64,000 nucleotides of DNA from Pseudobdellovibrionaceae bacterium (GCA_018663505.1 JABJQG010000053.1:80239-144238); one strand, 5' to 3'; numbered from the stretch's first letter, positions 970-56,734 are shown. The notes: generated by a model from the sequence alone, not told the origin. Program-made: numbers and translations.

Positions 970-2529
970 ATGAGTTTTCAAATAAAGAAAACAATAATAA
1001 CAAAATCTGTTTTGAATGTAATGAGTGTTAGCATACTAGGCTTGGCTCTTACACCAAGTAACGCGGCTACGGCAGCTAATATGGGTATGCCATATGAAGG
1101 TTATGACAAAAAAGAATGTATCATAAAATCAATATCTAACCCGCTAGATGGTGGAACACTTTCTGATAAAGATTGTAAGGTTATTTATGTCAAACCACCC
1201 CGATACGGTATATCTAAAGTCACGGCTGGTGCACCCACTATGCTCATGGGTGTATGTAAAGCCTACCTAAGAGGACTTGCTAAATATAGTGAGCTAAATA
1301 AAGACAACGAAGATCTCGAAGATAAAGGTAGAGATGCTGCTGACGAAGCCAGAATTTCTGGTGTTCAAAACGATGTTCTATTTGATGATATTTTAGGAGG
1401 ATTAAACAACACAAATACATACCTCACTCGACTTACAAATGGACTTTCCGCGAATCAATCCGTTGCTCTCACTGCTCAACTGACATTAACAACATCTTGG
1501 GACCAACTAGTTAAACAATACAAGGAGGCCAATCAAGATATTATTGATTCTAAGCAAATTGAAATAAGAAAACTGCCTATTCAACTTGGAGTAGTGACAT
1601 ATGCCTCACGAATTTCTGATGATGAAAGCTACTTAGGGTTAACAGCATTAAACCCTGTGGTTAGCTCAGTTATTCACTCGGTTGATGACATCAATTTAAA
1701 CGGACAAAGGGTTGGAGGCTCAACACCTAGCACAGGAATAGCTAAAATGTCCACAACACTTAATGCCCAAATCGCACTAAACTTAGCTGGAGCTTGTCCC
1801 TTTTCTGACGGAGCATCTCAACTGCTTCCAAAGGATTTCCCAAAGCATCTCTCTGCCTATATTGCACCAAACTATACTTACTATTACAAAGTTCAAACTC
1901 AATCCATTTATCGTATAAAAATCAATTCTGACATGGTCAGTAAAGTTATAGAGGAAAATATCACAAATGTTGGCCAGCTAGATTCAACAACCCTAGCTTC
2001 AAAACTTTTTAATCACGAAGGTAGTAGTGCCGTAACAATTGAAACAATCGAGGGTTATGACAGTAGTAAAGTGCCCGATGATATTAAAAGTACTTTAAAA
2101 GGAAAAATTGTCGAAGCTTTATCAATAAAGATGTTAGCAAGCATTGGAACTTTAGATAAAATACTACCCAATGGAGTGGAACCAAAAGAACCTCTAAATG
2201 CAGTTAGTCAAATAAAACGAAGCAGTAGACATTGTCGTCGTAAATGGTGGGGTGGTCGTAGTTGCCATACGCATAATTACAGCATCACAGTGAAGAATAA
2301 TTACAGAAAAACAAAAATCAGAGAAGCTGTTCGAAAAATAAAACTAGACATCAATGTCTCAGGAAAAAACTTTTCTAACTTTACTGCATCTGGAACACAA
2401 GCCTTTGTTCCTGGTATAGGTGACATATTAAAGTATGAACGAGCTAACTCTGGGCAAAACCAACCTAGTCCCGATGCGCAACCAGTGACACCCGAAGAAT
2501 CTAAAAATGAAGATTTAGGAGAGTTCTAA
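970..2529 (+). CDS. Secreted protein of unknown function, operon member 1 (paralogue of member 3)
   Basis: AAGGAGG at 959-965 precedes ATG 970. The N-terminus has a signal-like segment SVSILGLALTPSNAATAA. The stop overlaps the next start (TAATG 2527-2531). It shares the motif C-x8-P-x10-DCKVIYVKPPRYGISKVT-x10-C with ORF 3547..5250. Confidence 0.8.
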   Translation: MSFQIKKTIITKSVLNVMSVSILGLALTPSNAATAANMGMPYEGYDKKECIIKSISNPLDGGTLSDKDCKVIYVKPPRYGISKVTAGAPTMLMGVCKAYLRGLAKYSELNKDNEDLEDKGRDAADEARISGVQNDVLFDDILGGLNNTNTYLTRLTNGLSANQSVALTAQLTLTTSWDQLVKQYKEANQDIIDSKQIEIRKLPIQLGVVTYASRISDDESYLGLTALNPVVSSVIHSVDDINLNGQRVGGSTPSTGIAKMSTTLNAQIALNLAGACPFSDGASQLLPKDFPKHLSAYIAPNYTYYYKVQTQSIYRIKINSDMVSKVIEENITNVGQLDSTTLASKLFNHEGSSAVTIETIEGYDSSKVPDDIKSTLKGKIVEALSIKMLASIGTLDKILPNGVEPKEPLNAVSQIKRSSRHCRRKWWGGRSCHTHNYSITVKNNYRKTKIREAVRKIKLDINVSGKNFSNFTASGTQAFVPGIGDILKYERANSGQNQPSPDAQPVTPEESKNEDLGEF

Positions 2530-3554
2530 TGAAAATCATAACACTACTAATAGGAGGGGCGTGTTTAGCCCCCTGCCTATTACAAGCAAAAACTATCCAT
2601 CTAAAAGTTCCAGTGAATGGACTAACTAACAAAGTAAACGTTCAAGTAGACAGTAATACTGGGCAAGTTAACGTAAATTGGAAAGATACAATAAATGCAA
2701 AGTTTAAATCTGATTCTCCATACTTTTCAGAAGATGTTTGCAAACGTACAGAAGATATGACAGAGACAATTGTTGAGGAAAATAAACCCGGCTTATCTCT
2801 AACAAGTAAATCTCATTCTATACGATTTAAGCTTTTTGAAAATGTAGTAGATATACCTGCCTTTTTAACAACAATAGTCTCTCAACTTCGAAAAAAAAGG
2901 TACTACAATATTAAAAAATTAGAAATTGAAAATCCTTTAAAAGTTCATGGATTAGATTTTGAATACACACTAGGATCAGACTCTATCTCACAAACTCTTG
3001 GAGAATTTAGTACAAATAATATCAACAATTCATTAACAAATTCCATAGAAGCTAACTTAAGTGCTGTACAAAAATATGGATATATACAGGTAGACACAAA
3101 ACTCACACCATTTATTTGTGATATTTTTAGTGGCGAAGCACAATTGAATTTTAGAATTAATTTAGAAGAAATTCTTAATTCAAAAAAGATCAAGCCATAT
3201 ACTTCAAAAAATATTACAAGCATATCAAATATGTTGGTTAAAAAATTTGCCCGTATAGCTAAATTAACTAAAAACTCAACTTTTATAAGAAATAATCAGC
3301 AGCTTATATTAGCTTCTTCAATATATTCGGAAGCTCACAGTAATGTAATGAAAGAGAATTTAAAAAAATCATATGTTAAACATTACCTAAAACTATTTGC
3401 CCATATATTTAGTCAAGAGAGCTTCTCACCAGTGCAATTAAACGCATCTGATTCTAAAAGAATTGCAAATAAGCTTACCATAACTCGACAACAGTCAAAA
3501 CCATACAGTTTAACTGTAAGTAACTTTCAACGTATAGGGGAATACAATGACTAA
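2529..3554 (+). CDS. Secreted protein of unknown function, operon member 2
   Basis: Its ATG overlaps the upstream stop. Signal peptide MKIITLLIGGACLAPCLLQA. No recognisable domain. Confidence 0.75.
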   Translation: MKIITLLIGGACLAPCLLQAKTIHLKVPVNGLTNKVNVQVDSNTGQVNVNWKDTINAKFKSDSPYFSEDVCKRTEDMTETIVEENKPGLSLTSKSHSIRFKLFENVVDIPAFLTTIVSQLRKKRYYNIKKLEIENPLKVHGLDFEYTLGSDSISQTLGEFSTNNINNSLTNSIEANLSAVQKYGYIQVDTKLTPFICDIFSGEAQLNFRINLEEILNSKKIKPYTSKNITSISNMLVKKFARIAKLTKNSTFIRNNQQLILASSIYSEAHSNVMKENLKKSYVKHYLKLFAHIFSQESFSPVQLNASDSKRIANKLTITRQQSKPYSLTVSNFQRIGEYND

Positions 3555-5250
3555 GTTATCAACATTAACAACTTTATTTTTTGTCCTGGGTATAACTAAT
3601 TATGCTCAAGCTACACCAAGAAAACATTCATTATGTAATTCATCAGCCATACAGTCTCCGGAAAACTCAGCTGGATTCTTTTTTGGGGAAGATTGCAAGC
3701 AAATTTATGTTTTGCCTCCCAAAGAAGGTACTTTAGAGGTCACAAGTTTTAATTATGACCTAAGAGCACTTCAATGTGGAGCCATCAATCATCAGGTAGA
3801 TAAAGCTAATGAAATCATAATAAACCTGGTTGAAGAAGATAAAAAACTAACATTAAGAAGATCTAAAATTCGTGAGCAAAATGCAGCTGTCATCGCAAAA
3901 CGTAACAAATGTTTTAATTTTGACCCTAAAGTGGATAAATTAAAAGATAAAAAAAACAAAGTGGGATCAGCAATTCGTATTAGGCAATCAAAATTAGTTC
4001 AGTTAGAAGATCAGTATAATTCATGTTCCGACCAAAATGCTTCTGATTGTAGATACCTACCTTATGATATCACTAGTTTAAAAAATCAGATTCAAAATTT
4101 CAATGCTAAATCAGAAATTATTGATTCTGCAATATTAAGCTATACTGAAAGAAAGGACAGTTGTCTGCAAAACATAGACAGGTATGTCACAGGCTTAAGC
4201 CGTAGTGACACTGAACTGAACTCCATCATTAACAACTATCGAAAAGAGCTAAATGTTTTACAAAGTAATATGAACTTAATGTATAACAATCTAGCTCCCA
4301 TTGCCACGTCTACTCTTGGTATAAAATATGAATCGCACTACGTACAGCTTGTTGAGGAGTTTAAGAGTTTAAACCCAGGTGTTAATTTTAATAAAATGCC
4401 AAACAGCTCTATGGCGCTTGAAGTAAAGCTAGTTCGTGATGGGCACAGACAAAATATACCTATGGTAATATCATCTGATATTCACGCTGTATCACTTGCA
4501 CCAACTGAAATATCTATTGACCTTTATCCTGCAGGTATAGATTTAAGACCCACAGCTAACGTGGTCTTTTCAGAATCGCTTTCTGGAACCATGAGTTTAA
4601 ACCAGTTAGGTACTTGTATGATTACTCGCCGGATGGAAAATCAAACGGGTGTGACAAATGACCTCAATGAAATAGCAGAACTTATAGGGGGCAATGTCTT
4701 TTACACTTACCAACTTCAGACAGATCGTAAATTTGAGTTCAAGTACAACGAGCATGAACTTTTCCGACGCATTAAAAAGAAGTCAAGAAAAGGTGGGCTT
4801 TTTAAAACATCAGTTGCACAGTCGCTCACAGAGGAGCTAAATGCTAAGTCTTGGTTACAAGTCAAAGTTACCTCCGAGGACTCACGTAATGTTTATGTTG
4901 ACTCTCAAAAAATGATTAGTGAAATACGTTCTGAGTACCTAAATAGGGCAATTTTTAAAGTAGCAAAATACTTTGTTTCTAAAGAACAACTTCACCTACT
5001 CACACCACCTTCTGAAAACGGTGCCGCAGTAGCTTCTAAAGAACTTAAAAAATGTCCAAATCCTTATTGCCAATTTGGCGCAGCTGTTTTGGACGTGGCT
5101 AATGCTATTTTTGGCGAAGCCCAATCATCTGCTAGTCATACAAGAACCATTGACCAGATGAATTGGGAAAAACAGGTTGTTTCTGAAATGTTACCTTTTA
5201 CTGGTTCATTTGGTCTTTTTCCAAAACAAAGGTCGGAAGGTGTGTTTTAA
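3547..5250 (+). CDS. Secreted protein of unknown function, operon member 3 (paralogue of member 1)
   Basis: ATG 3547 lies 8 nt inside the upstream ORF (ATGACTAA). Signal peptide ends ...FFVLGITNYAQA. Motif C-x8-P-x11-DCKQIYVLPPKEGTLEVT-x10-C is followed by a K/E/N-rich coiled-coil-like region. The later FYTYQLQT and KKKSRKGGLF segments parallel YYYKVQTQ and RRKWWGGRS of member 1. Confidence 0.8.
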   Translation: MTKLSTLTTLFFVLGITNYAQATPRKHSLCNSSAIQSPENSAGFFFGEDCKQIYVLPPKEGTLEVTSFNYDLRALQCGAINHQVDKANEIIINLVEEDKKLTLRRSKIREQNAAVIAKRNKCFNFDPKVDKLKDKKNKVGSAIRIRQSKLVQLEDQYNSCSDQNASDCRYLPYDITSLKNQIQNFNAKSEIIDSAILSYTERKDSCLQNIDRYVTGLSRSDTELNSIINNYRKELNVLQSNMNLMYNNLAPIATSTLGIKYESHYVQLVEEFKSLNPGVNFNKMPNSSMALEVKLVRDGHRQNIPMVISSDIHAVSLAPTEISIDLYPAGIDLRPTANVVFSESLSGTMSLNQLGTCMITRRMENQTGVTNDLNEIAELIGGNVFYTYQLQTDRKFEFKYNEHELFRRIKKKSRKGGLFKTSVAQSLTEELNAKSWLQVKVTSEDSRNVYVDSQKMISEIRSEYLNRAIFKVAKYFVSKEQLHLLTPPSENGAAVASKELKKCPNPYCQFGAAVLDVANAIFGEAQSSASHTRTIDQMNWEKQVVSEMLPFTGSFGLFPKQRSEGVF

Positions 5251-5942
5251 TGAAATCCTTATTACTCATTTTATTGAGCCTCTCCCTTAATGCTCAAAGC
5301 ATTGAAGGGTTGGGGTCCCAGGTAATAAACCTTAATGATTGGATCACACAACCCCAACAAACAATCGAATTTGATAGGGTTAACTGGCTAAACAAAAGTA
5401 CCGCCCATTATAGCTGCAATGCTGTCTTACAAAACCATGAAGACTTTAGCAGAAATGAAGCTAAATATTTAGATGTAGTACTAGAAGAAATTTTTAAATC
5501 AAAGGGGGAAAATGCTCAGTCCTTGAGGCATTCACGTGAAACCCTTATGGATTTAGTGGGTCTCTCTGCCGAACATCCTTTTTTTAAAACGGTAGCTTAT
5601 GCAGAAGTAACACTTGCACAAAACTGGATTGAGTCTGCAGATTCTTTCTTACTCATGAAATATGGACACTTTGAAGTTTCTAAATTTTTAAACTTTAAGA
5701 ATTTAAACATTCATTCAACAGTTTTACCAAACAAAAGTGTGACTTTGAATATTCCCATATCTTATTACGATATTTGTGCTCATAAAGGTGTGTATATTGC
5801 AAAACTCACTCAGTGCCATGATAACGCCGATAACTGGGTCCAATGTTCAAAAAGATATGGTGTTCACATGAACCTTAATGAAAAAGCATTAGGTTTAGGT
5901 AAAGCAACAAACACTAGAAGGAGTAATGGGCGATGGGATTAA
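5250..5942 (+). CDS. Secreted protein of unknown function, operon member 4
   Basis: TAATG overlap at 5248-5252. Signal peptide MKSLLLILLSLSLNAQS. No recognisable domain. Confidence 0.7.
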   Translation: MKSLLLILLSLSLNAQSIEGLGSQVINLNDWITQPQQTIEFDRVNWLNKSTAHYSCNAVLQNHEDFSRNEAKYLDVVLEEIFKSKGENAQSLRHSRETLMDLVGLSAEHPFFKTVAYAEVTLAQNWIESADSFLLMKYGHFEVSKFLNFKNLNIHSTVLPNKSVTLNIPISYYDICAHKGVYIAKLTQCHDNADNWVQCSKRYGVHMNLNEKALGLGKATNTRRSNGRWD

Positions 5943-6394
5943 AATCAAAAATTATTTTTCTTGTTTTACTTACCTCTGCCTCATCTTTATTTGCCAACTT
6001 GCCCGTAGGACTAGAAGCAATGTTAGATGATTTTGTAGGGATAACGGAGATTCATAATTGTAAAGTTGAAGTTTGGGAAACCACTATTGCGCAAAACGGA
6101 ACTTATGATCGTGCCGGTCTTGGAATAATGGTCACTGACAATAGAATTAAGAAAATAGCTTCAATTTATTTAAACAATGAGTCTATAAGTATTAATCAAA
6201 ACATGGATCAACGCAGCTACAGCTTTAAGCGCGTTTTTACAGTAGCTAGCCAAAAATATCATCAATATTTAAAAATACATTTTAATCAATGGAACGCTTT
6301 GACTTTATTTGAAGTTGGAGAATTTAACGAAACTAAACTGGAATATACTCAACGTAGTATTTGCAAACAAGAACATTTAGGTGGTCATAATTAA
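5933..6394 (+). CDS. Secreted protein of unknown function, operon member 5
   Basis: ATG 5933 overlaps the upstream ORF by 10 nt (ATGGGATTAA). AAGGAG at 5918-5923. Signal peptide ...LVLLTSASSLFA. Confidence 0.7.
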   Translation: MGLKSKIIFLVLLTSASSLFANLPVGLEAMLDDFVGITEIHNCKVEVWETTIAQNGTYDRAGLGIMVTDNRIKKIASIYLNNESISINQNMDQRSYSFKRVFTVASQKYHQYLKIHFNQWNALTLFEVGEFNETKLEYTQRSICKQEHLGGHN

Positions 6395-6418
6395 TTATGA
6401 CCTCAGGAGGATATAAAC

Positions 6419-7318
6419 ATGAATAAAATTATTAAAAAATTATCACTAGCATTATTACTTTCCACTCTTCACCTTAGCTTTGCTCAAGCAAAAACAAATG
6501 GTGTTGTTATTGAACCTGCATCAATGGAGGTCAGAGTGGCTTCCGACGGCAGAAGCATTGATGTGAGTTTAATTAATAACGAAGATTTTGACCTTTTCTG
6601 TTCTCAAATTGCAGTGGAAAGTGAAATGATTAAGGCCCCTTATGGAGAATGGAAAGGTTGGAAAAAAACACCTATTTTTAATACCTATATTCGATCTAAT
6701 GAATCTGCTGAAATCAGTGTAGGTCATGCCCATATTAAAACAAAAGAAAGTCTTGAAGGAGACAAATTCGTTTATTCGTTTGCTAAAATAAACAGTAATC
6801 ACGTACATTGTCAAAAAGCTAGTTTTGAAAATTACTGTGACTTTGCTTCTTTAGATGAAGAAGAGGAGTACACCATTGACAAGATCTTACAGGAAACTAA
6901 CAGCACAAGTTGCGCCAAGGCAGAGGGGAAACTACACGGAAATGTAAGACTTAGAGCACTGGGATTAAAATCTGTAAAACCCATTAGTTTTTTCCCAAGA
7001 GTTCTTAGTCTAGATTTACAAAACAACAAAATCACATCAGTAAAGGATTTATCAATTATTGAAAACCTAAGAACCATAAACCTCAACAACAATCCCATTG
7101 AGCTTTTTTCGGACTTCTGGAAGATGGAAAACCTAAGGCGACTCTATCTTTTTGGATCATCTATTAAGGACATTGAGGGTATAGAAAAGTTACATAGTTT
7201 GAAAAAATTAAATGTTGGAAACACTGATGTTGAAGATTTTTCACCAATGAAAAAGCACCCGCGTTTAAATGTTAGGTATAAGAAAATACTCAAGTATGAG
7301 GAACCTCATGCTTGGTAA
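6419..7318 (+). CDS. Secreted leucine-rich-repeat (internalin-like LRR) protein, operon member 6
   Basis: AGGAGG at 6405-6410 precedes ATG 6419. Signal peptide ...LSTLHLSFAQA. The C-terminal half has ~22-aa LRRs: LSLDLQNNKITSVKDLSIIENLRTINLNNNPIELFSDFWKMENLRRLYLFGSSIKDIEGIEKLHSLKKLNVGNTDVEDFSPM. Confidence 0.8.
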   Translation: MNKIIKKLSLALLLSTLHLSFAQAKTNGVVIEPASMEVRVASDGRSIDVSLINNEDFDLFCSQIAVESEMIKAPYGEWKGWKKTPIFNTYIRSNESAEISVGHAHIKTKESLEGDKFVYSFAKINSNHVHCQKASFENYCDFASLDEEEEYTIDKILQETNSTSCAKAEGKLHGNVRLRALGLKSVKPISFFPRVLSLDLQNNKITSVKDLSIIENLRTINLNNNPIELFSDFWKMENLRRLYLFGSSIKDIEGIEKLHSLKKLNVGNTDVEDFSPMKKHPRLNVRYKKILKYEEPHAW

Positions 7319-7402
7319 CCAAGCCCCGTAACAAAACAGTTGTAATTTATATATATTGAAAAAAGAGTGTGCTCATAGTATAAGCACACTAAGGAGAACG
7401 CT

Positions 7403-8137
7403 ATGAAAACATTGAAATCTCGAATCCTTTTAAGTCTAACTTTAGTAATTATGGCTTTAGGCTGTAATAAAGATGATCCAAAGCCTGTAACCCCACCGCC
7501 ACCTGTAGATAAGGGAGGATCTGGCGGAGCTGGGGGCGCAGCAGCTGCATTGAAGTGTAAACTAAAAAATCCCATTTCTTTAAAAAACATAGATACAACT
7601 AAAGCCTATTTGGTATTTAATAATATTACTTTATCAGCAAAAGCTACCACAAAAAGCTTTAAACAATTTGATGGTAGTGCATTTCAGTTTATCTTGCACT
7701 CTCCGGTTTATCGCCTTATTGGAGAGAGTTATAGACCTACAGTTGTTGAAGCTGGTCACCTTGTGGTACCGTCAAGATGGGATGATCCTGACTCTATTGG
7801 TGTACCAGAAATTATCGAAGATCAATGGAGTATGAGTGCTAAAAGCGAAGCTCTAGAAAACTCAGAATACATACTGCATACTGTGGAGCTAATATCAGAC
7901 TCTTATGCAAGTAAAAATATAGAGCCCAGAACCTCAAAAATCATTTACAAACAAATTATAGATTACAAAAATCAACAAATTATTTCTATAGAAATAACAA
8001 ATGATATTCTTGCCTATTATGATGCCATGGGGTCCAGAACTCCCCAAGTAACAAATTTAGATGTAAGGCAAACTCTATGCATTGAAGATATGAGTTTTAA
8101 AGAAGGTTTAGATAGAGAACCTCAAACTTCCAACTAA
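7403..8137 (+). CDS. Lipoprotein of unknown function
   Basis: AAGGAG at 7391-7396. Lipobox LVIMALGC is followed by a Pro/Gly-rich linker (PKPVTPPPPVDKGGSGGAGGAAAA). Confidence 0.7.
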   Translation: MKTLKSRILLSLTLVIMALGCNKDDPKPVTPPPPVDKGGSGGAGGAAAALKCKLKNPISLKNIDTTKAYLVFNNITLSAKATTKSFKQFDGSAFQFILHSPVYRLIGESYRPTVVEAGHLVVPSRWDDPDSIGVPEIIEDQWSMSAKSEALENSEYILHTVELISDSYASKNIEPRTSKIIYKQIIDYKNQQIISIEITNDILAYYDAMGSRTPQVTNLDVRQTLCIEDMSFKEGLDREPQTSN

Positions 8138-8292: not shown

Positions 8293-10482
8293 TTACTTAC
8301 AGTCCAACAGACGTTTTAAGCGACATATTGCTGTGTAGCGCTTAGATACTCGATGAAAGATATCTGTGTGAGCTCCGCCAATTTCGGAGTTTAAAGAGCG
8401 TCCTAATCCAGCTATGCTTCTTTTGTTTTTAGGCTTAGATTTTTTACTGGGTAGGTAATCCTTAAGACTAAATCGTTTCTTTTGATCAAACTTACCAGAG
8501 CCACCTCTGCTATATCCCTTAAAGCCTCCACCAGAACTCACAGCCACATTTGAGGTATAACCGCCACCGCCACGTGCGCCTCTTAAAATATTTGTTTTAT
8601 AACCAGCGCCACCGCCAGACCCGCCGCCACCGGCTGCGCCCATTCCGCCACCGCTGTCTCCAGACATTTGAGGACCGCCTGTTCCGCCACCGCCAATTCC
8701 GGGATTTTCGGAAGGTGTTCCACCAGCTATGGGACCACCAATGACGTCTCCTTCAACTAAACTGTCACCATCATCATCGTTATATGCATCACCACCAAGC
8801 TCTGGTCGGCCTCCTACTGCCGCCAAACCACGACCTCCGCCATTATCGCCAAAAGATGCTGTGGTTGGTGGTGGAAGCAATAAACCTGTACATTGTGTTG
8901 ATGACCTATTGACCGCTTCACGACAAAACAAACAGGTGGGATTTGTTGCATTTATAGGGTTTGTACAGTCTCCATTGAAGGCTGTTTCAACCACAGGAAG
9001 TCCTGTGGCTTGAGTAGCAACACGCTCTTCACAGTCTCTAGCCAGTTGGCCTTGTATCATAGTTTTAATGGATTGAGCCACATGTGCATCTTGTTTCTGC
9101 TCTAGCTTTCCACAAATACCAATATCCTGTTCTAAACTAGCTAAAGTATCGGAGTATCTCTCACGCTCTTTACAATTAGCTCTAAAGTTATCATCTAAAC
9201 GCCAAGACAGAATCTCCACACTTTTACCTGAGGAACAGTTTTTATTATTATATTTAGTGGTTAGCTTTTCATATTTATCTATGGTGGGTTCACAAGTATC
9301 TTTACAAGTATCACGAGAGCTTTTACAAACTCCAGAAGAAGCAAGGGCAGTAAATGTCCCTACATCAGAAATATTCTTAAGTTGCTCACAATGTTTAGCA
9401 ATAGAATTAATCTGCCCAGCTCGAGCCGTATTCGCTATCTGAGTGACTCCAGATAAGATTTGTCCAATAATCTCAGGTTTACCAGTTACGCATGCTAAAA
9501 TATCCCCACAGCATTGTGTGGCCTCTTCTTGTGTGTCATCACATTGCTTTTTATCTGCTACTCTTTCTGCTTTTTGGATTGGGTCTTTGGCACTTAGGTC
9601 TCTTATGTGGTCTTGTACAGTATTTCCAATATTACCCGCTGCTAAAATTCCATCCACACACTTTTCTCCTATTTGAGGAGCGGAACATTTGTGAATTTTT
9701 TTAAGTAAACATAAAGTGTCGTCTATTTCACAACCCATAATGGCCGAGGAGATACTTGATACAGTAGTTATACTAGATATACCTTGGGCCGCACTTGCTG
9801 CAGCCACAGCTTGCGCTTTTTTCATTTCGCAAGTTTGATTCACACAACTGTTCTCAGGCTCAATACCTTGTAAGGTGCTTTCTACAATTTTTTTAACACA
9901 TTCTAGATCTCCGCCACATGGTGGCTTTGCAACATCGCCATTTTTTGGGATAAGAGTGTCGTCATTATTTGGCTTTGCAGGCACCCTTGGAGTATCTGCT
10001 ACAGACTTACACTTTGATGGCACTGGTATACCTGAAAGTGCCGCCATTCTCCGAGTCATTTCACAAGTTGTATTTTCAATTTTCTCTAATTCGTCAGGCT
10101 GCCTAGTTGAATCGGTACTAGTTATATAGTCAGTATTTCCTGTATCACCACCTTCGGCAAAAAAACCAAGATCATCACTAATTATCCTTCTAACTGGATC
10201 AAAACAGCGCAATTTTCCATAACTTGAAACTATAACCCTGCCTTGCCAATCACAGGCCTCCAAGTATTCTTTCATTTCAGTGTCGAAAGGATTATAAGTA
10301 ATATTAACCTTTTCAGATTGCAATTTTCGCCTATTTTTATCTTTAACTGCTGTGGGAACTAAGCCTTCACAAACGCCATCGCTATAATTAAACGAAACAC
10401 GATTACCTTTATAGCAATCACCTGCTAGTATCATGAATGGAAAATTGAATATAAACAGCACCAAAAAAATATATGTTTTCAT
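8293..10482 (-). CDS. Secreted Cys-rich protein with a Gly-rich low-complexity region and a basic C-terminal tail; function unknown
   Basis: GGAGG lies upstream of ATG 10482. Signal peptide MKTYIFLVLFIFNFPFMILAG. About 30 Cys in the first ~540 aa. This is followed by GGGGTGGPQMSGDSGGGMGAAGGGGSGGGAGY...GGGGY...GGGFKGYSRGGSG and a K/R-rich end. Confidence 0.75.
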   Translation of the reverse strand: MKTYIFLVLFIFNFPFMILAGDCYKGNRVSFNYSDGVCEGLVPTAVKDKNRRKLQSEKVNITYNPFDTEMKEYLEACDWQGRVIVSSYGKLRCFDPVRRIISDDLGFFAEGGDTGNTDYITSTDSTRQPDELEKIENTTCEMTRRMAALSGIPVPSKCKSVADTPRVPAKPNNDDTLIPKNGDVAKPPCGGDLECVKKIVESTLQGIEPENSCVNQTCEMKKAQAVAAASAAQGISSITTVSSISSAIMGCEIDDTLCLLKKIHKCSAPQIGEKCVDGILAAGNIGNTVQDHIRDLSAKDPIQKAERVADKKQCDDTQEEATQCCGDILACVTGKPEIIGQILSGVTQIANTARAGQINSIAKHCEQLKNISDVGTFTALASSGVCKSSRDTCKDTCEPTIDKYEKLTTKYNNKNCSSGKSVEILSWRLDDNFRANCKERERYSDTLASLEQDIGICGKLEQKQDAHVAQSIKTMIQGQLARDCEERVATQATGLPVVETAFNGDCTNPINATNPTCLFCREAVNRSSTQCTGLLLPPPTTASFGDNGGGRGLAAVGGRPELGGDAYNDDDGDSLVEGDVIGGPIAGGTPSENPGIGGGGTGGPQMSGDSGGGMGAAGGGGSGGGAGYKTNILRGARGGGGYTSNVAVSSGGGFKGYSRGGSGKFDQKKRFSLKDYLPSKKSKPKNKRSIAGLGRSLNSEIGGAHTDIFHRVSKRYTAICRLKRLLDCK

Positions 10483-12738: not shown

Positions 12739-13662
12739 ATGTACAACAATTTCAACATAGCTAAAAAGCAAATGACCAATAAAGACTTTGCCTTTATTAA
12801 CCAACAGGCCATCAATGCTGTGAAAACTTTAAAGAAGGCCGAGTATGATTTGATTAAGGTTTTGCAAAAAGTTGATGAGAAAAAGGTTTATGCTTATTAT
12901 GGTTTTCGAAGCCTTTTTCAATATAGCCTCTCGGCCTTGCACCTTACTGAATCTCAGGCCTATAGCTATATCAACGTGGCTCGGAAGTCTCAACAATGTC
13001 CTGCTTTAGATGAAGCTCTTAAGAATAAAGAAATTTCTGTTTCTAAACTTAAACAAGTGATTGCCCAAATTACCCCCTCTAATCAAACTGAGTGGATAGA
13101 TCGAGTTAAAACAATGAGTAAACGTGAACTTGAAAATCTTGTTGCTAAATCAAACCCGCATATACGCATCCCAGAACAAGCGCGTATGGTTGCAGAAAAC
13201 CTAATTCATTTACAAATGCCTATTAGCGAAAACCGCTTTAAAAAGTTTCAACGTGTTAACGAGCTTCTTTGTCAAAAAACTAACAAAGTGATCAAAATGC
13301 AAGATATTGTAGAACAACTTTGTGATTTTTATATTGAAAAAAACGATCCCCTGAAAAAGGCAGAGCGTGCGGAAAAACGAATAAAAAGAAAGCCAAACAG
13401 GATCACTTTACAAAACAAAGCAAAGCCAATTGTAGCTTCACAGACAAATAGAGCCGCCATTCCATCTAGTATACAAAACCAAGTTTATCTACGAGATCAG
13501 GGTTGTTGTCAGTTTTTAGACGCCACTGGAAAAAAATGTAGAGAAAGGCGTTGGTTGGATTACCATCATGTAATTCCTGTGAAAAAAGGTGGAGAACACA
13601 GCCTTAAAAATTTAACCCTTTTGTGTCGTGGACATCATCGCAGCCTGCATTTTATAACTTAA
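12739..13662 (+). CDS. HNH endonuclease with a DUF222-like helical N-terminal domain
   Basis: C-terminal HNH motif CCQFLDATGKKCRERRWLDYHHVIPVKKGGEHSLKNLTLLCRGHHRSLH. The N-terminal part (GFRSLFQYSLSALHLTESQAYSYINVARKSQQCPALDEALKNKEISVSKL) resembles DUF222-type HNH proteins. Confidence 0.8.
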   Translation: MYNNFNIAKKQMTNKDFAFINQQAINAVKTLKKAEYDLIKVLQKVDEKKVYAYYGFRSLFQYSLSALHLTESQAYSYINVARKSQQCPALDEALKNKEISVSKLKQVIAQITPSNQTEWIDRVKTMSKRELENLVAKSNPHIRIPEQARMVAENLIHLQMPISENRFKKFQRVNELLCQKTNKVIKMQDIVEQLCDFYIEKNDPLKKAERAEKRIKRKPNRITLQNKAKPIVASQTNRAAIPSSIQNQVYLRDQGCCQFLDATGKKCRERRWLDYHHVIPVKKGGEHSLKNLTLLCRGHHRSLHFIT

Positions 13663-14763: not shown

Positions 14764-15975
14764 TTAAACCAATGGTAAACATAAAGAAACATGACACCCA
14801 TTTTCTTGTTTACTTTTTATTTTTAATTGACCGCCACTGCTTTTTGCAAAAAGCGTTGCGTTCATTAATCCTAATCCGTGCCCTGTTGTTTTTGTAGTTA
14901 CTTGAATGTTTTTATTAATTTTATCCAGGACTGCCTTATCCATGCCTATACCATTATCTTTAATATGAATCGTCACCATATTATCAATTTTTTCTAAACT
15001 CACATTTATTTTTGACTTCTTTCTTTTATCACCTACTGACTCTCTGGCGTTATTAATGAGGTTCGACAATACGCTATACAATTCCCTCTCGTTAACCTTG
15101 GACAAATGACTTATACCTCTACAGTTAAAAATAATTTCAACATTCTGATTTTTAAATTCCAAACCCTTATGTGCTGTAACTTCATGTAGAAGGCTATTTA
15201 AATTTACTACTCCTGTGCTACCCCTCTCTCTCTGCATTCTCGCTCGCTCCGATGCTCTACAAAGTGGTTCATTTACTAAATTCAATGGCGATGCACCTTT
15301 CGAAATTTTATTAAATATACTTGTGGGAATAAACTGACTAGGATTGTTAAACATCTTAATTGTGTTAAGTTCTTTTTTTAATCTAATAAGCACACTGGAG
15401 TTTACTTGATCCACACAGACAGGATCTAAACTTCCAGAGAGGTTCGAATCCTCATTAGAGTTTTGGCTAAGATTGGAGTCTAGAATAAACTTAGATTTTG
15501 GACCTGCTTTGAAATAAGTGCTCTCCTCAATATTAACATTTAGCCCCTTCTCAATATTAATATTTAACTCCTTAGGAATATTAACACTTAACCCCTCATG
15601 ATTAACTACATCTTCATCACAATTATCTGACTTACCGTTCAAGTCATTATCCTTAAGACCACTTAATAATTCACCAGCGATTTGCTGAATACGCTCTGAG
15701 GCCGAGCACAATAACTGAGAGCCTTTTTTACTATTAGGCACTGAGGACGCAATTTTTATCACACTTAAAGGAGACTTTATATCGTGACAAACCTGAGCTA
15801 CCATTTTACCTAAACCCACTAACTGCTGCTCTTTTTTTAGTTGATGCTTTAACAACACCAACTCTTTCTGAAGCAGGTCATAACGTTTCTTTTCTTCTTT
15901 TAACATTTTTTGGCTTTCGAAATTTCGTTTATTTTGAAAATCAATCATGGATATTACTTTTTCTTGCGCTCTCAT
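14764..15975 (-). CDS. Cytoplasmic sensor histidine kinase with a coiled-coil N-terminus
   Basis: H-box VCHDIKSPLSVI, N-box NLINNARESV, G1 DNGIGM, G2 GHGLGL. No TM segments. Confidence 0.85.
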   Translation of the reverse strand: MRAQEKVISMIDFQNKRNFESQKMLKEEKKRYDLLQKELVLLKHQLKKEQQLVGLGKMVAQVCHDIKSPLSVIKIASSVPNSKKGSQLLCSASERIQQIAGELLSGLKDNDLNGKSDNCDEDVVNHEGLSVNIPKELNINIEKGLNVNIEESTYFKAGPKSKFILDSNLSQNSNEDSNLSGSLDPVCVDQVNSSVLIRLKKELNTIKMFNNPSQFIPTSIFNKISKGASPLNLVNEPLCRASERARMQRERGSTGVVNLNSLLHEVTAHKGLEFKNQNVEIIFNCRGISHLSKVNERELYSVLSNLINNARESVGDKRKKSKINVSLEKIDNMVTIHIKDNGIGMDKAVLDKINKNIQVTTKTTGHGLGLMNATLFAKSSGGQLKIKSKQENGCHVSLCLPLV

Positions 15976-16512
15976 TTCTACCCTTCTTCTTTAGCATTCA
16001 AATTATGTTTTTTTGAACCTCTGTCATTTTCTCGCTGATTCCTAATTAAGAAATTAAATCAGCTACCTAAAAACAAAACTCAAAACCTCTCCAACTTTAA
16101 CCACAAAACAAAAGAGGTGACTTTGTATATGATCAGCTACTTGAGCAAACGACGTGCCGAAAAATTTGAGGTATTTTTAGACAAATTGGTGTCACAATTG
16201 TCAATATCATGAAATTTTTTCACGGTGACATGACCGTGCTCCAGTGCGTCGCAAGGACTTTCTGACACCGCTTAGAGGTTAGTAAGACAACCCCATTAGG
16301 TCAAAGCCGACGATCCTGTTAGAAAAGTATTCCTTAGCACTGTCAGTACTCACAGCGGACATGCTTGGCACATACTTCTTTCACCGAGAAATAGTAGGCT
16401 TTAGTTTTCGCTCAATTCTCGAAAACTTTTTGACCATAGATATAATTAAAAAATTAAAAAAAACTGCTCCAAACCAACACTTTAGTTACTCAATGAAAAC
16501 TTTAATCATTAA

Positions 16513-17778
16513 TCATCGTCTCGTTCTATTTCCTGATTTCATTTCAATAGACCTAATTATTCCACCGGTGAGATCAATCATCTCTATGGGAATTGTTAAA
16601 GCTCGCTCATCATGACTGATACGCTGAGCTCCCCAACTACTATGAACCTTTAATGCTACTATGTGACCATGCTCATCCAACTTATACCCTTTTATAGTGA
16701 CACTGTGAGCAGTGCTCATTTGCTGATCCGCCAGCTTTATGGCATCAATATCTAACTTCCCATCTTTTAAAGGCATTATATAATGTCCTTTTTTAGCTCC
16801 AGACTTCACAAGAAATTTATCTAAATTTCTATAAGTAAGATACAGTTCCACTTTATGATCAATGGCTGTTTTAAGAATTTGCTCTTGCCTTTGGATAATA
16901 ATCAAGGGGTCATCATTAAAAAATCTTTCCTTAAAAGCAATATCCTCACTGATAAATCGCAAATTGTTATATTGGGGCGAAATTAATCGTCTTGTGCTCA
17001 TTTTCTTTTCAACACTAATAAGAGAAGATCTTACATCCGCAAGAATAGCATTAAGCATATTTACAACTTCATCCATCTGGACTTGAATCAACGCCTTTCT
17101 TTCTAAAGATTTGTACTGCTTCACTAATATTTCAGAATTACGAAAAAAATATTTAATTTCCTGCATTTTAACTTCAATTTCTTTAAAATGTGCAGCTACT
17201 TTTTTAGACTCTAGATATTCTTCAGCTTGTGATTGCTTACTAACTACCAGCGGCCTTACCCCAGATAAATCTTTTAGTATATTAGACATTGAATTGGGTG
17301 GTTCTAAGTTTGTCTTTAATTTTTCGCTATGAAGTGATATTCCAAATTTAAATCTTACTCCATCTTCAAACCAGAGAGAGTCCTCTCTCTTACCGGAGGA
17401 TCTCGCCTTATAATTTTGTTTATCCAACGAAGGGTTCAATTCATTTTTTTGAGAAGCAAAACTCTGAAGTAATTTTTCCACTTTTATCATAACAAGCTGT
17501 AAGGCTAAGTGTTCTCGATTTACACTGACCTCACGCCCCATAAAATAGGAGAAGCTGCTACTTAATGATCGAGCCCAGGTTTCAAAATAACAGGTCCCAC
17601 CACACTGTTGTAATATTGGAGTCTCAATTAATTTCACACGCGAAAACAGCCGTATGCACTGGTATTTAACCGGTGCTCCTGAGGACATAGTAAATGTGAC
17701 AAAAATGGCTAATAAAATACCATATTTTATCCACTTTTTAGGCCCACATGAATAGACATTAAGCTGTTGAAATCTCAT
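16513..17778 (-). CDS. Papain-superfamily cysteine peptidase with C1B (aminopeptidase C / bleomycin hydrolase)-like spacing and an N-terminal signal/anchor
   Basis: LQQCGGTCYFETWARS resembles Q-x5-CGxCWxF. About 300 aa later, TAHSVTIKGYKLDEHGHIVALKVHSSWG resembles HAMxxxG...WxVxNSWG. A hydrophobic N-terminal segment is present (ILLAIFVTFTMSSGA). Confidence 0.55.
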   Translation of the reverse strand: MRFQQLNVYSCGPKKWIKYGILLAIFVTFTMSSGAPVKYQCIRLFSRVKLIETPILQQCGGTCYFETWARSLSSSFSYFMGREVSVNREHLALQLVMIKVEKLLQSFASQKNELNPSLDKQNYKARSSGKREDSLWFEDGVRFKFGISLHSEKLKTNLEPPNSMSNILKDLSGVRPLVVSKQSQAEEYLESKKVAAHFKEIEVKMQEIKYFFRNSEILVKQYKSLERKALIQVQMDEVVNMLNAILADVRSSLISVEKKMSTRRLISPQYNNLRFISEDIAFKERFFNDDPLIIIQRQEQILKTAIDHKVELYLTYRNLDKFLVKSGAKKGHYIMPLKDGKLDIDAIKLADQQMSTAHSVTIKGYKLDEHGHIVALKVHSSWGAQRISHDERALTIPIEMIDLTGGIIRSIEMKSGNRTRR

Positions 17779-18054
17779 GGAAATAATTAATGCAAGGGAC
17801 TTGCCAATAATGCAATTTTTCTAGGGACAAAGACATTCCTTTCTCAGCTAAAATAGAACAGTTTTAGGGAAATATTGCATTGTTAGCCTTATTGTGTAGC
17901 AGTCCTCATTTAGTATGAGATCCCTAAAATCAATCACTTATCCATTTAAACTTCTAGTTTTTTTTACTTTAACAAAATATCAGGGCCAAGATCTAGCTAC
18001 TGGCCACTTCCAGATTTTTCATAATGATTCCATAAAATTATCCGATAATGATGT

Positions 18055-19373: not shown

Positions 19374-20393
19374 TTACCAAGTCACCTGTAAGTCAGGAGT
19401 CACTGTAAAGTAACATCTAGTATTGTCCGTGGTTACAAAGTTACCAGGTACTAATATTGTAAAGTGTTGTCTAGATCCATGAGAGTAATGAGCCATCAGA
19501 TCGCCGTTTGCAAATCTTAATATAACTTCATCCAAAGGTTGTACACCACATGGGTTAATAACTTCAGTAATCATATATTCACTCACTGGAGCATCTTTAC
19601 CATCTAGGCCATTAGTGCCATCAACTCCATTGCTACCATTAGAACCATTATTTCCGTCAGTGCCATCTGTACCATGCTTTATCAAAGCCACTGAACCATC
19701 TGGACATTCTACATAGGCACCACCTTCAACTTCATTAACTGTACAAGCAACAGCATCTTTTCCGTTAATACCATCCACACCATTTGCTCCATCAGCACCA
19801 TTTGCTCCATCAGCACCATTTGCTCCATCAGCACCGTTAGCTCCATCTGTACCATTTGCACCATGTTGAACAACTGCAATAGATCCATCATCACAAGAAA
19901 TCACTGCACCAATATCGCCTTCCGCAACTGAACAAGTTGAACCGTTAAGACCGTCTAAACCATCTACGCCGTTAACTCCATCTACACCATCATGAACAAT
20001 AGCCACAGTTCCATCTTCACAAGAAACATAAGCTCCAAGCTCGGTCTGTGTCACTGAACAAGATGTACCATTTTCTCCATGTTTAATAACAGTGGCGGAC
20101 TCATCATCGCAAAAGACTAAAGCACCTTCAGCTATAGGTTCAACATGACAAGAACCCCCGTCAACACCATCGATACCATCAGCTCCGTCTTTTATCGCAA
20201 TCTCTGTACCGTCTGGACATTTTAATACATAATGGTCATCCAATGGTTCCACCGTACAAGCAATAAAGTTTTCTACAGGTACAGGGTTACCATCAGCAAA
20301 CATTCCATCTGATGCTTGGTTGTTTAAATCCTTACAACCAAATAGACCTAAGTTAATCACAAATAACAAAATCTTTAATCCATGTTTGCTCAT
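19374..20393 (-). CDS. Modular lipoprotein with five Cys-framed modules separated by collagen-like G-x-y triplet runs
   Basis: The track start at 20438 is TTG. ATG 20393 has GGAG upstream and gives MSKHGLKILLFVINLGLFGC (lipobox). Five modules of C-x-V-x6-G-A-x-V-x-C-x-DG-x6-HG are separated by runs such as GANGTDGANGADGANGADGANGADGANGVDGINGKD. Confidence 0.8.
   Translation of the reverse strand: MSKHGLKILLFVINLGLFGCKDLNNQASDGMFADGNPVPVENFIACTVEPLDDHYVLKCPDGTEIAIKDGADGIDGVDGGSCHVEPIAEGALVFCDDESATVIKHGENGTSCSVTQTELGAYVSCEDGTVAIVHDGVDGVNGVDGLDGLNGSTCSVAEGDIGAVISCDDGSIAVVQHGANGTDGANGADGANGADGANGADGANGVDGINGKDAVACTVNEVEGGAYVECPDGSVALIKHGTDGTDGNNGSNGSNGVDGTNGLDGKDAPVSEYMITEVINPCGVQPLDEVILRFANGDLMAHYSHGSRQHFTILVPGNFVTTDNTRCYFTVTPDLQVTW
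19778..19849. repeat. 18-bp tandem repeat (3 perfect + 1 diverged copy) encoding the (GANGAD)n collagen-like run
   Basis: CACCATTTGCTCCATCAG occurs at 19778, 19796 and 19814, with a diverged copy at 19832. Confidence 0.85.
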
Positions 20394-20632
20394 ATATTTT
20401 TCTCCATGTACGTGTATAGTCATGGAATATAAAAGCAATTACTGGACCAAAGTTTTGTTGTTCTGTTTTGAAATGGTGTGCTTCAACTATTGGAAATAGT
20501 TATTCTATTCTCAGTGACTCATAATAGTAATGTTTGATTTTTTGTACATGTTTATTTTCTGTTAACATCTTCTACAAAAACTAAAACTTTGAAATGACAT
20601 TTATAGTTCTCACATCAATACAAAACAATTAG

Positions 20633-52254: not shown

Positions 52255-52270
52255 TGGCACCTAACTTGCA
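52255..52270 (+). promoter_or_regulatory. Consensus-perfect sigma-54 -24/-12 element
   Basis: TGGCAC(52255-52260)-ctaac-TTGCA(52266-52270), 12 nt before ATG 52283. Confidence 0.45.
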
Positions 52271-52282
52271 GTTTATGTCCAT

Positions 52283-52927
52283 ATGAAATCAAAATCTTTG
52301 GCACAATCTATTATTATCCTAAGTCTATTAAGCTACGCTAGCTTCGCTCACTGTGCCGGCTCAAAAATGAACTACATAAAATCTATCCTTAGCACTAAAA
52401 AAACAAATACAACGGCTCTCATAAAGGTCAAACAGGACATCAAAGATTTAACCACAAACAGCAGCATTAAAGCTGATTTGAGTTTTAACAATATTGAAAA
52501 ACTTAAAAAAACCCTATCTTACCAAGATGAGCTTAAATTAAGGCAACATTTTTATGATCAATTGATCTTTAAGTTAAATACCCGCTATAAGAACCAACCT
52601 ATAGTTGATTTTCTAGCTATCGAAATTTCACAAATGGCAATTACAGAAATATCCAACCCGGACAGAAATATCAGTTACTGGCAATTTCTCACCCATTTAG
52701 CCAAAGCCGTAAAGATAGCTCCAGAAAAAAATGAGGATATTATGGCCTTTATCACCGGCTATGTTTACACATCTTCAATCTCAAACCCCATATCACCCAA
52801 AGAGTTTTTAAAAAGAAGACACTACACAAATTCTGTTGAGATTCTTACCGTGAACCCATCTAATAAAGAAAATGTGGGTGAAGAGTTAGAGACCACAATT
52901 AATCAGCTTAACTACAGGGTGCAATAA
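52283..52927 (+). CDS. Secreted protein of unknown function
   Basis: Signal peptide MKSKSLAQSIIILSLLSYASFAHC. Confidence 0.6.
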   Translation: MKSKSLAQSIIILSLLSYASFAHCAGSKMNYIKSILSTKKTNTTALIKVKQDIKDLTTNSSIKADLSFNNIEKLKKTLSYQDELKLRQHFYDQLIFKLNTRYKNQPIVDFLAIEISQMAITEISNPDRNISYWQFLTHLAKAVKIAPEKNEDIMAFITGYVYTSSISNPISPKEFLKRRHYTNSVEILTVNPSNKENVGEELETTINQLNYRVQ

Positions 52928-55414: not shown

Positions 55415-56734
55415 TTAACCTAAATACCTTTGTAGCCTCTCTATCTTCTCTTGTACCCCCTCCATAATCACAGTCAAAATTTTTTCGGGAAAATCTTTTG
55501 GCACAGAGATATTATCACGGAGGCCATCCGCACATTTTAGAATTTCTTCCAAATTTTGAGTCAGTTTTTTTTGTGGAATTCCATATTTTTTTGCAGACTC
55601 AAAAAAGTGCCGGGGTTCAATTTTAAAAAGACGATAATGCCTCTTGTCTCCTACTGCCATAGCCATCTTCGCTTGCTTTTGTTGAATTTGCTTATCTTTT
55701 AATGCTGGATAAACGCTGAGTACATCATAAAACGGGGTCATTTTAAATCCCGCAGAAGTCATTTGCACACTAAAGTTCTTCCCATGACCATCAATAGCTC
55801 CTAATAACCAGTAAATTACATTAGCTTTCAGAAATTGCATACGATCGTTTACTCGTTCATCTGAATCATTCAGTAAATTTAAAATATCTTTAAACCCCGG
55901 ACGAACACCCGTGGCCTCTCTATGCTCGGCCTCATACTTTAAGTGCGAAGGAACCCCCAATGCCTGACACATGTCCTCTTGAGGAATTCGAATGAGTTTA
56001 TTTTTTGTCTTCCACCTACGATCAAAACGTTCCACCACTAAGCAACGTACATCTTCAAACTCATGAATTTCAGCGTGGTTCACTGATAGGCCAAAAGCCT
56101 CACATAACTTTAAACAAAGCCACTCGTTTTCCACACTAGTTCTTAAATCAATACCATTGTGTAAAATGCCCATGCTGGGTTTAAAAATATGAGTGGTGGG
56201 TGTGGTGCCTAAAGGCAGCTTCCACTGTCCCTCATGAAACAACAATGCTGTCTTTTCTTGAGCTCCAGCCACAGATATGCGAAAGGCTTCATCATCATCT
56301 GAAGAACGAATCCCCAATGGACTGGTCTTGAGTTCTTTTATTATTTTGGCTATACGAGCTTCCGAAAGATTCTCTGCCATAATCTTATGTGAATACTTCA
56401 CATCTTTGGAACTTGTGATTCTTAAAGCTCCCACACAATCCCCGCCTATAGCCTTCAACAAATCAAAAGGAGTATCACTTTCAGCTTGAACATTTGTAGC
56501 TAATTTTTTTCGTATATCCACACTATCTGGCAAAAGATTATCAAAAAAGTTATATACCTCAGGTCCAGAATACCTCTCTCTCTCCAAACCCAAAGATAAA
56601 GAAATAGGAATAGCCTCTGACTGTTTCAACCAAGATGGATCATAGGAAAAACTCATAGCTCCTGTACCTTTTTTTACCAAGGTGCCCACTAGATTTTCTT
56701 CTAGGTATACAAATAAATCCTCAGACCGGGCCAT
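55415..56734 (-). CDS. hipA: HipA-family serine/threonine kinase toxin
   Basis: 439 aa. N-terminal LFVYLEENLVGTL...FSYDPSWL and the C-terminal kinase core (DGHGKNFS) are typical of HipA. It lies 3 nt downstream of hipB. Confidence 0.9.
   Translation of the reverse strand: MARSEDLFVYLEENLVGTLVKKGTGAMSFSYDPSWLKQSEAIPISLSLGLERERYSGPEVYNFFDNLLPDSVDIRKKLATNVQAESDTPFDLLKAIGGDCVGALRITSSKDVKYSHKIMAENLSEARIAKIIKELKTSPLGIRSSDDDEAFRISVAGAQEKTALLFHEGQWKLPLGTTPTTHIFKPSMGILHNGIDLRTSVENEWLCLKLCEAFGLSVNHAEIHEFEDVRCLVVERFDRRWKTKNKLIRIPQEDMCQALGVPSHLKYEAEHREATGVRPGFKDILNLLNDSDERVNDRMQFLKANVIYWLLGAIDGHGKNFSVQMTSAGFKMTPFYDVLSVYPALKDKQIQQKQAKMAMAVGDKRHYRLFKIEPRHFFESAKKYGIPQKKLTQNLEEILKCADGLRDNISVPKDFPEKILTVIMEGVQEKIERLQRYLG

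Follow-up and report, generated by a model that had tools for sequence, protein, structure and literature searches.

A conserved six-gene operon of Bdellovibrionota encoding secreted proteins of undescribed families, a candidate envelope or surface assembly

We analyzed a 64,000-nucleotide (nt) stretch of DNA from a Pseudobdellovibrionaceae bacterium (GCA_018663505.1 JABJQG010000053.1:80239-144238), hereafter the window, in which six consecutive genes at 970–7318 appear to form one operon of predicted secreted proteins. Comparison of related loci showed genes 1–6 to constitute, as judged from gene order, one conserved gene module of Bdellovibrionota, built around two members of a protein family that we designate F0. 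That the operon encodes an undescribed envelope or surface assembly is our preferred reading, held tentatively and put somewhat short of an even chance. The genes and the first translation signal are listed below, with open reading frame (ORF) lengths in amino acids (aa).

970–2529, + strand: gene 1, ORF of 519 aa, putative A-type core subunit of family F0
2529–3554, + strand: gene 2, ORF of 341 aa, putative conserved partner ("P2 family")
3547–5250, + strand: gene 3, ORF of 567 aa, putative B-type core subunit of family F0
5250–5942, + strand: gene 4, ORF of 230 aa with a signal-like N-terminus, predicted small secreted accessory protein
5933–6394, + strand: gene 5, ORF of 153 aa, predicted small secreted accessory protein
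6419–7318, + strand: gene 6, ORF of 299 aa, predicted secreted leucine-rich repeat (LRR) protein
959–965, + strand: AAGGAGG, ribosome-binding site of gene 1, read directly from the sequence

An initial annotation of this DNA had proposed six translationally coupled, same-strand ORFs, and ORF calling reproduced their coordinates and lengths exactly. The junctions agreed to the nucleotide: TAATG at 2527–2531 links genes 1 and 2, ATGACTAA at 3547–3554 links genes 2 and 3, TAATG at 5248–5252 links genes 3 and 4, and ATGGGATTAA at 5933–5942 links genes 4 and 5. The 24-nt gap described before gene 6 lies at 6395–6418 and contains AGGAGG, and the strong AAGGAGG lies before the gene 1 ATG as described. 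Absence of an internal terminator was likewise borne out, as a + strand scan of the operon found none that was convincing. Terminator-like sites between 600 and 8400 numbered 5 against 4.7 expected; the two on the + strand were one at 624–639, upstream of the operon, and a weak 5-bp stem at 5068–5080. Counts of sigma-70-like patterns in the same interval were at chance level, and an Rfam search of the window gave neither a riboswitch nor a leader RNA.

To compare gene order, about 20 loci were gathered from a motif-guided scan of one genome per GTDB species (12), a metagenome scan (6), and contigs of representatives, and their gene content was assigned by ORF calling plus BLAST/HMM (hidden Markov model) clustering. 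The genome survey covers members with the exact TAYVLPP motif and is therefore no guide to which species, B. bacteriovorus HD100 for example, lack the family. Matching genomes were labelled Bdellovibrionales, Bacteriovoracaceae, Pseudobdellovibrionaceae, Silvanigrellaceae, Oligoflexus tunisiensis, and Bdellovibrio sp. HCB185ZH, and two matches in metagenome-assembled genomes were labelled Nannocystis and Pseudomonadota. Cultured Bdellovibrio carriers were HCB185ZH (ACLSU7_06550-06565), KM01, and ZAP7 (DOM22_06100).

The layout that recurs opens with an F0 gene and continues with a gene of ~330 aa, in some lineages with a gene of 120–200 aa, and then with a second F0 gene, after which come a gene of 190–260 aa and further small genes. 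The same order was found in at least 10 independent loci from Bdellovibrionota genomes and metagenomes (the window operon, W, together with L004, L007, L008, L010, L012, and L023–L026), and the homologues are thus co-localised rather than scattered, the outcome on which the initial annotation had staked its claim of a single system. Gene lengths in five of these loci were as follows.

Window: 519-341-567-230-153-299 aa
L008: 505-281-548-219-166-128-270 aa
L010: 476-348-526-214-139-253 aa
L023: 442-337-565-225-160-116-236 aa
L024: 473-335-568-244-157-... aa

Nearly all junctions in these loci overlap by 1–11 nt or are separated by a gap of at most 22 nt; one L008 junction has an apparent 34-nt overlap, which depends on the start-codon call. 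The flanks of related loci are unrelated housekeeping genes, e.g., Mfd, transketolase, and proteases, and the neighbors in ~15 loci included no secretion or transport machinery, and no transporter or outer-membrane channel. The operon is a native gene set, since its GC content (0.35) is close to that of the window (0.369), the genomes of its relatives range in GC from 0.34 to 0.66, and its flanks are unrelated housekeeping genes. This conservation bears on whether the six products are functionally independent secreted proteins, a "secretome" or predation toolkit that is merely co-transcribed. Bdellovibrionota are rich in uncharacterised secreted proteins, and many ORFs of the window lack a family match, as such a toolkit would lead one to expect. 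However, the order, overlaps, and co-retention of the A, P2, and B genes are fixed across the whole GC range of 0.34–0.66, and linkage of this kind is what one commonly sees among genes for subunits of a single complex or pathway; we consider independent action unlikely.

Products 1 and 3 had been called paralogues on the basis of shared motifs. By BLASTP the relationship is weak, with two colinear segments aligned at E 1e-4 and 1e-3, and it becomes firm with a family HMM built from 80 members without the window proteins, which matched product 1 at E 6.9e-38 and product 3 at E 1.1e-141. The shared motifs turned out to be conserved throughout the family, namely C...DCxTAYVLPPxxG...C, N..Y.Y.L, and a GG segment with the consensus GGFFS. 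Word-indexed searches with products 3 and 1 returned the queries themselves and one Joint Genome Institute protein, P0002 (412 aa, E 9e-29). Exhaustive HMMER searching, using a profile of three sequences, recovered at least 500 F0 representatives at E <= 1e-3 (each a cluster at 50% identity); 330 of them remained at E <= 1e-10, and 116 were below E 1e-30 or equal to it. In the family alignment (A2, 82 sequences, including both window proteins), the F0 signature starts with a signal peptide and C-x19-20-DCxTAYVLPPxxG-x15-C, followed by a variable helical insert, and continues with LV..Y...N, GAC, N..Y.Y.L...R.Y...YN, GGFFS, WF, and KCPxxYCQxGA.

A neighbor-joining tree of the F0 proteins from the loci separated first-position from second-position genes across genomes. 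The first-position clade contained W.1, L008.1, L010.1, L004.1, and L012.1, and the second-position clade included W.2, L008.2, L010.2, L012.2, and L004.2; a third clade (L005, L006, L009, L011, and L017) has an arrangement of its own. Because first- and second-position genes form separate clades, the A/B duplication is older than the divergence of these lineages, and the tree shows products 1 and 3 as an ancient A/B pair, both copies of which have been retained together, rather than as a recent duplication. An expanded arrangement of the family was seen in Oligoflexus tunisiensis (L014, 6167–15716), where four F0 genes of 425, 435, 1014, and 845 aa lie in tandem, two of them with long C-terminal extensions that contain no Pfam domain.

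Products 1–5, for which the initial annotation could name no family, indeed fell outside characterised families in all searches made. For the six products, Pfam and NCBIfam gave the LRRs of product 6 and otherwise sub-threshold coiled-coil noise; PHROGs gave no match below 0.078 for the operon products, and PADLOC gave coiled-coil noise only (LmuB, 5e-4). An anti-phage defense or phage-derived origin found no match in PADLOC, PHROGs, or BFVD. PDB sequence searches with products 1–5 returned nothing specific. For the family as a whole, Pfam searches of the 82 F0 members found no domain beyond coiled-coil noise, the F0 profile matched hundreds of myosin, tropomyosin, and SMC-type coiled coils in the PDB and nothing specific, and a full-text literature search found no description of the family.

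An AlphaFold2 model of product 3, made using A2, had a mean predicted local distance difference test score (pLDDT) of 85.4 and a predicted template modelling score (pTM) of 0.69. The modelled chain runs through three N-terminal strands, an antiparallel helical hairpin at residues 74–249, and a beta/alpha domain ending in a long beta hairpin; the helices at 74–122, 125–158, and 171–249 have pLDDT > 93. The hairpin maps to the window as follows.

3766–4293, + strand: predicted helical-hairpin region of gene 3 (residues 74–249), from the AlphaFold2 model

The model of the short member P0002 (pLDDT 86.0, pTM 0.78) has the same body with a hairpin of ~50 residues. The middle region, which had been described as coiled-coil-like, is helical in these models as claimed, but it takes the form of an antiparallel helical hairpin that is set into a beta/alpha body. 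Across F0, inserts fall into two length classes of about 50–114 aa and about 184–199 aa. In W, L008, and L010, the A-type insert is short (79–101 aa) and the B-type insert long (184–199 aa); the product 1 insert is ~92 aa, and the 199-aa insert of product 3 belongs to a length class common to the L008 and L010 B-type genes. The product 3 hairpin is predicted to be rigid and ~13 nm long, and it is apparently stapled by disulfides across its helices and at its tip.

Fold comparison covered the PDB and BFVD with the two models. Neither the product 3 model nor the P0002 model had a PDB match at E <= 1e-3 by Foldseek. Results for the long-hairpin product 3 model were swamped by generic coiled coils, and the short-hairpin P0002 model had a best PDB match of E 0.22 with a TM-score of at most 0.13; the best match in BFVD, which is viral, was E 0.98. 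Judged by sequences and models, the system would lie outside every known kind, with no described family, structure, or paper found that covers products 1–5.

The only recurrent Foldseek neighbors, none of them significant, were EmrA (E 0.03), HlyD (0.1), and MexA, MacA, AcrA, and KpsE (0.6–3.6), as would be expected if F0 proteins were struts analogous to the periplasmic adaptors AcrA, MexA, EmrA, and HlyD and bridged the envelope through their hairpin tips. The order of elements is also adaptor-like, with beta strands, an inserted antiparallel hairpin in discrete length classes, and more beta strands, and both kinds of protein are extracytoplasmic and have a hairpin of lineage-specific length between beta strands. 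Heteromeric adaptor pairs exist, such as TriA/TriB of Pseudomonas aeruginosa. However, the TM-scores of these neighbors were 0.1–0.3 (0.20–0.29 for EmrA and 0.11–0.20 for MexA), and the probabilities obtained with the short model were at most 0.11. Neither products 1 and 3 nor the 82 members had a Pfam match to HlyD, HlyD_D23, or Biotin_lipoyl; F0 signals are of the cleavable type and come with no transmembrane or lipid anchor; and no transporter or outer-membrane channel gene adjoins the operon in ~15 loci. Unlike adaptors, F0 proteins also have an extra Cys-rich C-terminal domain and five inferred disulfides, and this helical/beta domain, with its KCPxxYCQ motif, has no adaptor counterpart. 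We give the adaptor explanation a small chance.

The cysteines of F0 co-occur in pairs. Counts over the 82 members, in product 3 numbering and with 122/206 and 160/168 counted in long forms only, were as follows.

Cys 30/50: both present in 80, both absent in 2, one alone in 0
Cys 77/357: both present in 82, both absent in 0, one alone in 0
Cys 122/206 (long forms): both present in 26, both absent in 30, one alone in 0
Cys 160/168 (long forms): both present in 46, both absent in 10, one alone in 0
Cys 503/508: both present in 78, both absent in 3, one alone in 1

All 10 Cys of product 3 are covered by these five pairs, and the 6 Cys of product 1 match three of the conserved pairs. This pattern implies that product 3 may have five disulfides, including a cross-helix staple (C122/C206) and a tip-loop bond (C160/C168). 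The co-occurrence fits disulfides at these two places and thereby supports the hairpin model. The only low-confidence loop of the product 3 model, residues 313–343, is hydrophilic, varies from 0 to 35 aa across members, and is missing in short ones; it was considered as a beta-pore-forming pre-stem and rejected on account of these three properties.

These structural features weigh on the possibility that the operon encodes a multi-component pore-forming toxin of the ClyA/YaxAB/XaxAB/Hbl-Nhe type, whose hairpin subunits would insert into a target (prey) membrane. The operon logic is similar, as ClyA-family toxins (YaxAB/XaxAB, Hbl, Nhe, and AhlABC) also comprise secreted subunits that are paralogous, encoded in tandem, and equipped with long helical hairpins; the organism is predatory, and the F0 profile weakly matches XaxA (8.8e-6) and Nhe L1 (8.5e-5). 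However, the latter matches are confined to the coiled-coil region and stand among hundreds of coiled-coil proteins, while the 50 best Foldseek matches per model contained no ClyA-family member and Pfam gave no match. Products 1 and 3 lack a hydrophobic or amphipathic insertion segment (no Kyte–Doolittle value > 1.6 beyond the signal), and in F0 neither the hydrophobic head nor the beta-tongue of these toxins is found. The hairpin tip is polar and disulfide-locked, the hydrophilic, dispensable loop 313–343 leaves no conserved pre-stem, and the F0 body is beta-rich, unlike the all-alpha ClyA folds. A toxin of this type is, in our judgment, quite improbable.

Signal peptides and transmembrane segments were called with a Kyte–Doolittle heuristic (19-aa windows, threshold 1.6). 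By this heuristic all six products have a single N-terminal hydrophobic segment and no later window above the threshold, in line with the initial annotation of Sec-type signals without further transmembrane segments. The N-terminal segment was present in 79 of the 82 F0 members and in 10/10 P2 members, and F0 signal peptides are of the cleavable type, with no lipobox. All six products are thus shown, at the level of prediction, to bear a cleavable-type signal peptide. Pairwise co-occurrence of the cysteines points to an extracytoplasmic, oxidising location beyond what the signal-peptide heuristic gives.

Product 2 found its best phmmer and jackhmmer matches in the local ORF set among the genes that follow F0 in L004–L010, L012, and L023–L025. 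Alignment of this P2 family revealed an invariant Cys pair, C71 and C197-D198 in product 2, and a P2-family gene lies just downstream of F0, immediately or past one small gene, in all loci with enough flank. The family has no Pfam or PDB match. A relationship between the partner and F0 was considered and rejected (hhalign probability 0.9%). By these comparisons, product 2 is classed as a member of a separate conserved partner family. In L005, L006, and L009 the P2 partner bears a lipobox, and small lipoprotein genes occur within the orthologous operons of L023 (116 aa) and L026 (119 aa); such lipoproteins, occurring in other lineages as the partner or as an additional small protein, suggest membrane attachment of the system.

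Product 4 has homologues at the equivalent operon position in L008 (E 1.2e-5) and L024 (E 1.2e-3), and product 5 has weak ones in L023 (5.6e-4) and L024 (3.8e-3); hhalign found no homology of the small accessory proteins across more distant loci. The arrangement in which each paralogue is followed by one or two smaller secreted proteins, gene 2 after gene 1 and genes 4 and 5 after gene 3, is as the initial annotation had it, and it would also suit two pairs of an exported F0 effector or toxin with a periplasmic immunity protein or chaperone, rather than one assembly. The rapid evolution of products 4 and 5, whose homologues are barely detectable, is a further trait often seen in immunity proteins. 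However, F0 is conserved over its full length, with no polymorphic C-terminal toxin module or known toxin domain, and A and B have been paired in a fixed gene order since ancient times, unlike shuffled effector-immunity cassettes. Moreover, the product 2 partner is an old conserved family, no secretion-system marker or delivery domain was found near the loci, and the sole apparent fusion, P0071, is an artefact. We therefore rate effector-immunity pairs as very improbable.

P0071 (L026 8001–10796, 931 aa) had been considered as a "Rosetta-stone" fusion of a B-type F0 protein with products 4 and 5, and this was rejected. Its middle is Arg/Ala/Gly-rich and reads as nonsense, and its last ~130 aa are 45% identical to the L023 product 5 homologue, including the signal peptide; most likely it reflects a frameshift in a 3x-coverage long-read contig and no true fusion.

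The last gene supplies LRRs, as had been noted: Pfam detected LRR_4 (6.6e-16) and LRR_8 (6e-11) at residues ~176–283 of product 6, corresponding to about five 22-residue repeats behind an uncharacterised N-terminal domain of ~150 aa. The further description as internalin-like holds for the 22-residue repeats, which product 6 shares with internalin/SDS22-type LRR proteins and over which the NCBIfam internalin models align, but not for the full-length models, which score far below cutoff (32–40 bits, with cutoffs of 1050–1600; internalin_A, 32.5 bits against 1600; inl_like_NEAT_1, 40 against 1275). Unlike internalins, product 6 has no cap, Ig-like inter-repeat region, or cell-wall anchor, and its host is Gram-negative. 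LRR homologues of product 6 occur in L006, L008, L010, L023, and L026 (E 1e-9 to 1e-22). The run closes with the LRR gene in W, L008, L023, and L026, and in L006 and L010 this gene stands at or near the end of the conserved genes; in L023 and L026 an opposite-strand gene follows it, which supports the 3' boundary chosen for the operon. Two features lie beyond that boundary in the window.

7366–7390, strand-neutral: stem-loop with a perfect 11-bp palindromic stem, 3' of gene 6
7403–8137, + strand: lipoprotein gene, 244 aa, with lipobox LGC followed by a Pro/Gly-rich linker

The stem-loop has a T-run solely on the - strand, and on the + strand an A-run precedes the stem; it may mark the operon 3' end or stabilise the mRNA. 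It directly precedes the ribosome-binding site of the lipoprotein gene. Whether this gene is a seventh member of the operon is uncertain, and its product had no homologue among the related loci.

Upstream of gene 1 lies a candidate promoter element.

919–933, + strand: sigma-54-type element TGGCACTAACTTTGT (-24 GG / -12 region), which differs from TGGCAC-N5-TTGC by one mismatch and lies, by its end, 37 nt before the gene 1 ATG

The orthologous L008 operon has a perfect element, TGGCACTGGCTTTGC, with 50 nt from element end to ATG. An element with one mismatch is found before the L010 operon, with 53 nt from element end to ATG, and before the L024 operon, where it starts 49 nt before the ATG; in L007, L023, and L026 the element has two mismatches, with GG and GC kept. 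Against a background of 14 sites (<=1 mismatch) per 209 kb of + strand, an element within 100 nt of the start in 3/3 nearest orthologues has a chance probability of ~3e-7, a rough estimate from that background. Because the element sits at the equivalent place upstream of orthologous operons, the operon is likely transcribed from a conserved sigma-54-type promoter. Loci of the third F0 clade have sigma-70-like hexamers upstream instead, and a search for sigma-28 promoters upstream found none. In comparative work (PMC3162934), sigma-54 regulons are described as enriched for bacterial exterior components.

Elsewhere in the window, a perfect sigma-54 consensus, TGGCACCTAACTTGC, occurs at 52255–52269 on the + strand and ends 13 nt before a 214-aa ORF (52283–52927) of no Pfam family. 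One-mismatch sites lie at 17792–17806, just upstream of the - strand ORF 16513–17778, and at 16145–16159, just upstream of a - strand histidine kinase ORF (14764–15975). Sigma-54 may be widely used in this genome.

Taken as an undescribed envelope or surface assembly, the operon would work as follows. Exported by Sec and folded oxidatively, A, B, and the product 2 partner would make up a hetero-oligomeric core in the periplasm or at the cell surface, with the helical hairpins standing out from it like struts or spikes. The LRR protein and the small proteins, which evolve fast, may be peripheral subunits that give specificity or provide anchoring. A sigma-54 enhancer-binding activator would control expression, as it typically does for structures of the cell exterior, and the role could be prey or substrate contact, or envelope architecture, which is a guess. 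The initial annotation had proposed an extracytoplasmic multi-protein assembly of an adhesion, prey recognition, or toxin delivery type; the extracytoplasmic location is upheld by the Cys pairs and signals, whereas physical association of the products, and a role in adhesion, prey recognition, or toxin delivery, are putative.

Several observations speak against an assembly of this kind or its regulation. Co-transcription and co-retention are also compatible with proteins that act separately; the operon products in the window carry no membrane anchor, and periplasmic, outer-membrane-associated, and released locations are thus indistinguishable; and homologues of products 4 and 5 are detectable solely in the nearest relatives. 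Every F0 homologue with a source name is a "hypothetical protein". As for the promoter, the window element has GT in place of the canonical -12 GC, the pattern occurs 8 times in the window against 3.0 expected, so that the element alone is within chance, and no enhancer-binding protein (Sigma54_activat) was found among the scanned window ORFs. A more specific version of the envelope or surface assembly, in which a Bdellovibrionota-specific A/B apparatus, of a fold with no solved structural relative, uses disulfide-stapled spikes and the LRR protein to contact prey or substrate under sigma-54 control, is doubtful, with an appreciable chance of being right.

Other features of the window lie outside the operon. 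At 1–663 on the + strand is the 3' end of a gene that enters from outside the window; its annotation as an Ig-domain surface protein gene receives weak support, from an Ig I-set match that stays below the Pfam threshold (E 1.8e-4; 22 bits, the cutoff being 23.7) and is followed by a Cys-rich C-terminal region. On the - strand, 8293–10482 is a 729-aa ORF with a signal-like N-terminus, many cysteines, a long Gly-rich basic C-terminal region, and no family match, coinciding with a GC spike (0.52 at 8501–9000 against about 0.37). A 354-aa ORF at 19374–20438 (- strand) has collagen triple-helix repeats (Pfam Collagen, 1.8e-11), which are unusual in bacteria. A HipA-type toxin kinase (HipA_C, 1.6e-48) is encoded at 55415–56734 (- strand), and 12739–13662 (+ strand) encodes a protein of 307 aa whose C-terminal domain is an HNH nuclease; the two genes may be remnants of toxin-antitoxin systems or mobile elements.

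Much of the envelope machinery of Bdellovibrionota, which are candidates for "living antibiotics", is unassigned. The operon is one among many uncharacterised secreted-protein loci in these genomes, and the module is phylum-wide, comprising at least 500 sequence clusters and extending over marine and freshwater or soil lineages. On a minimal reading, F0 and its partner are added as two new protein families, whose diagnostic motifs and putative disulfide map give a basis for annotating hundreds of "hypothetical proteins". If the products do form an assembly, it would be a new architectural type for bacterial envelope biology, and if the apparatus contacts prey or substrate as outlined above, it would represent a bacterial cell-surface machine of a new kind, linked to life as a predator.

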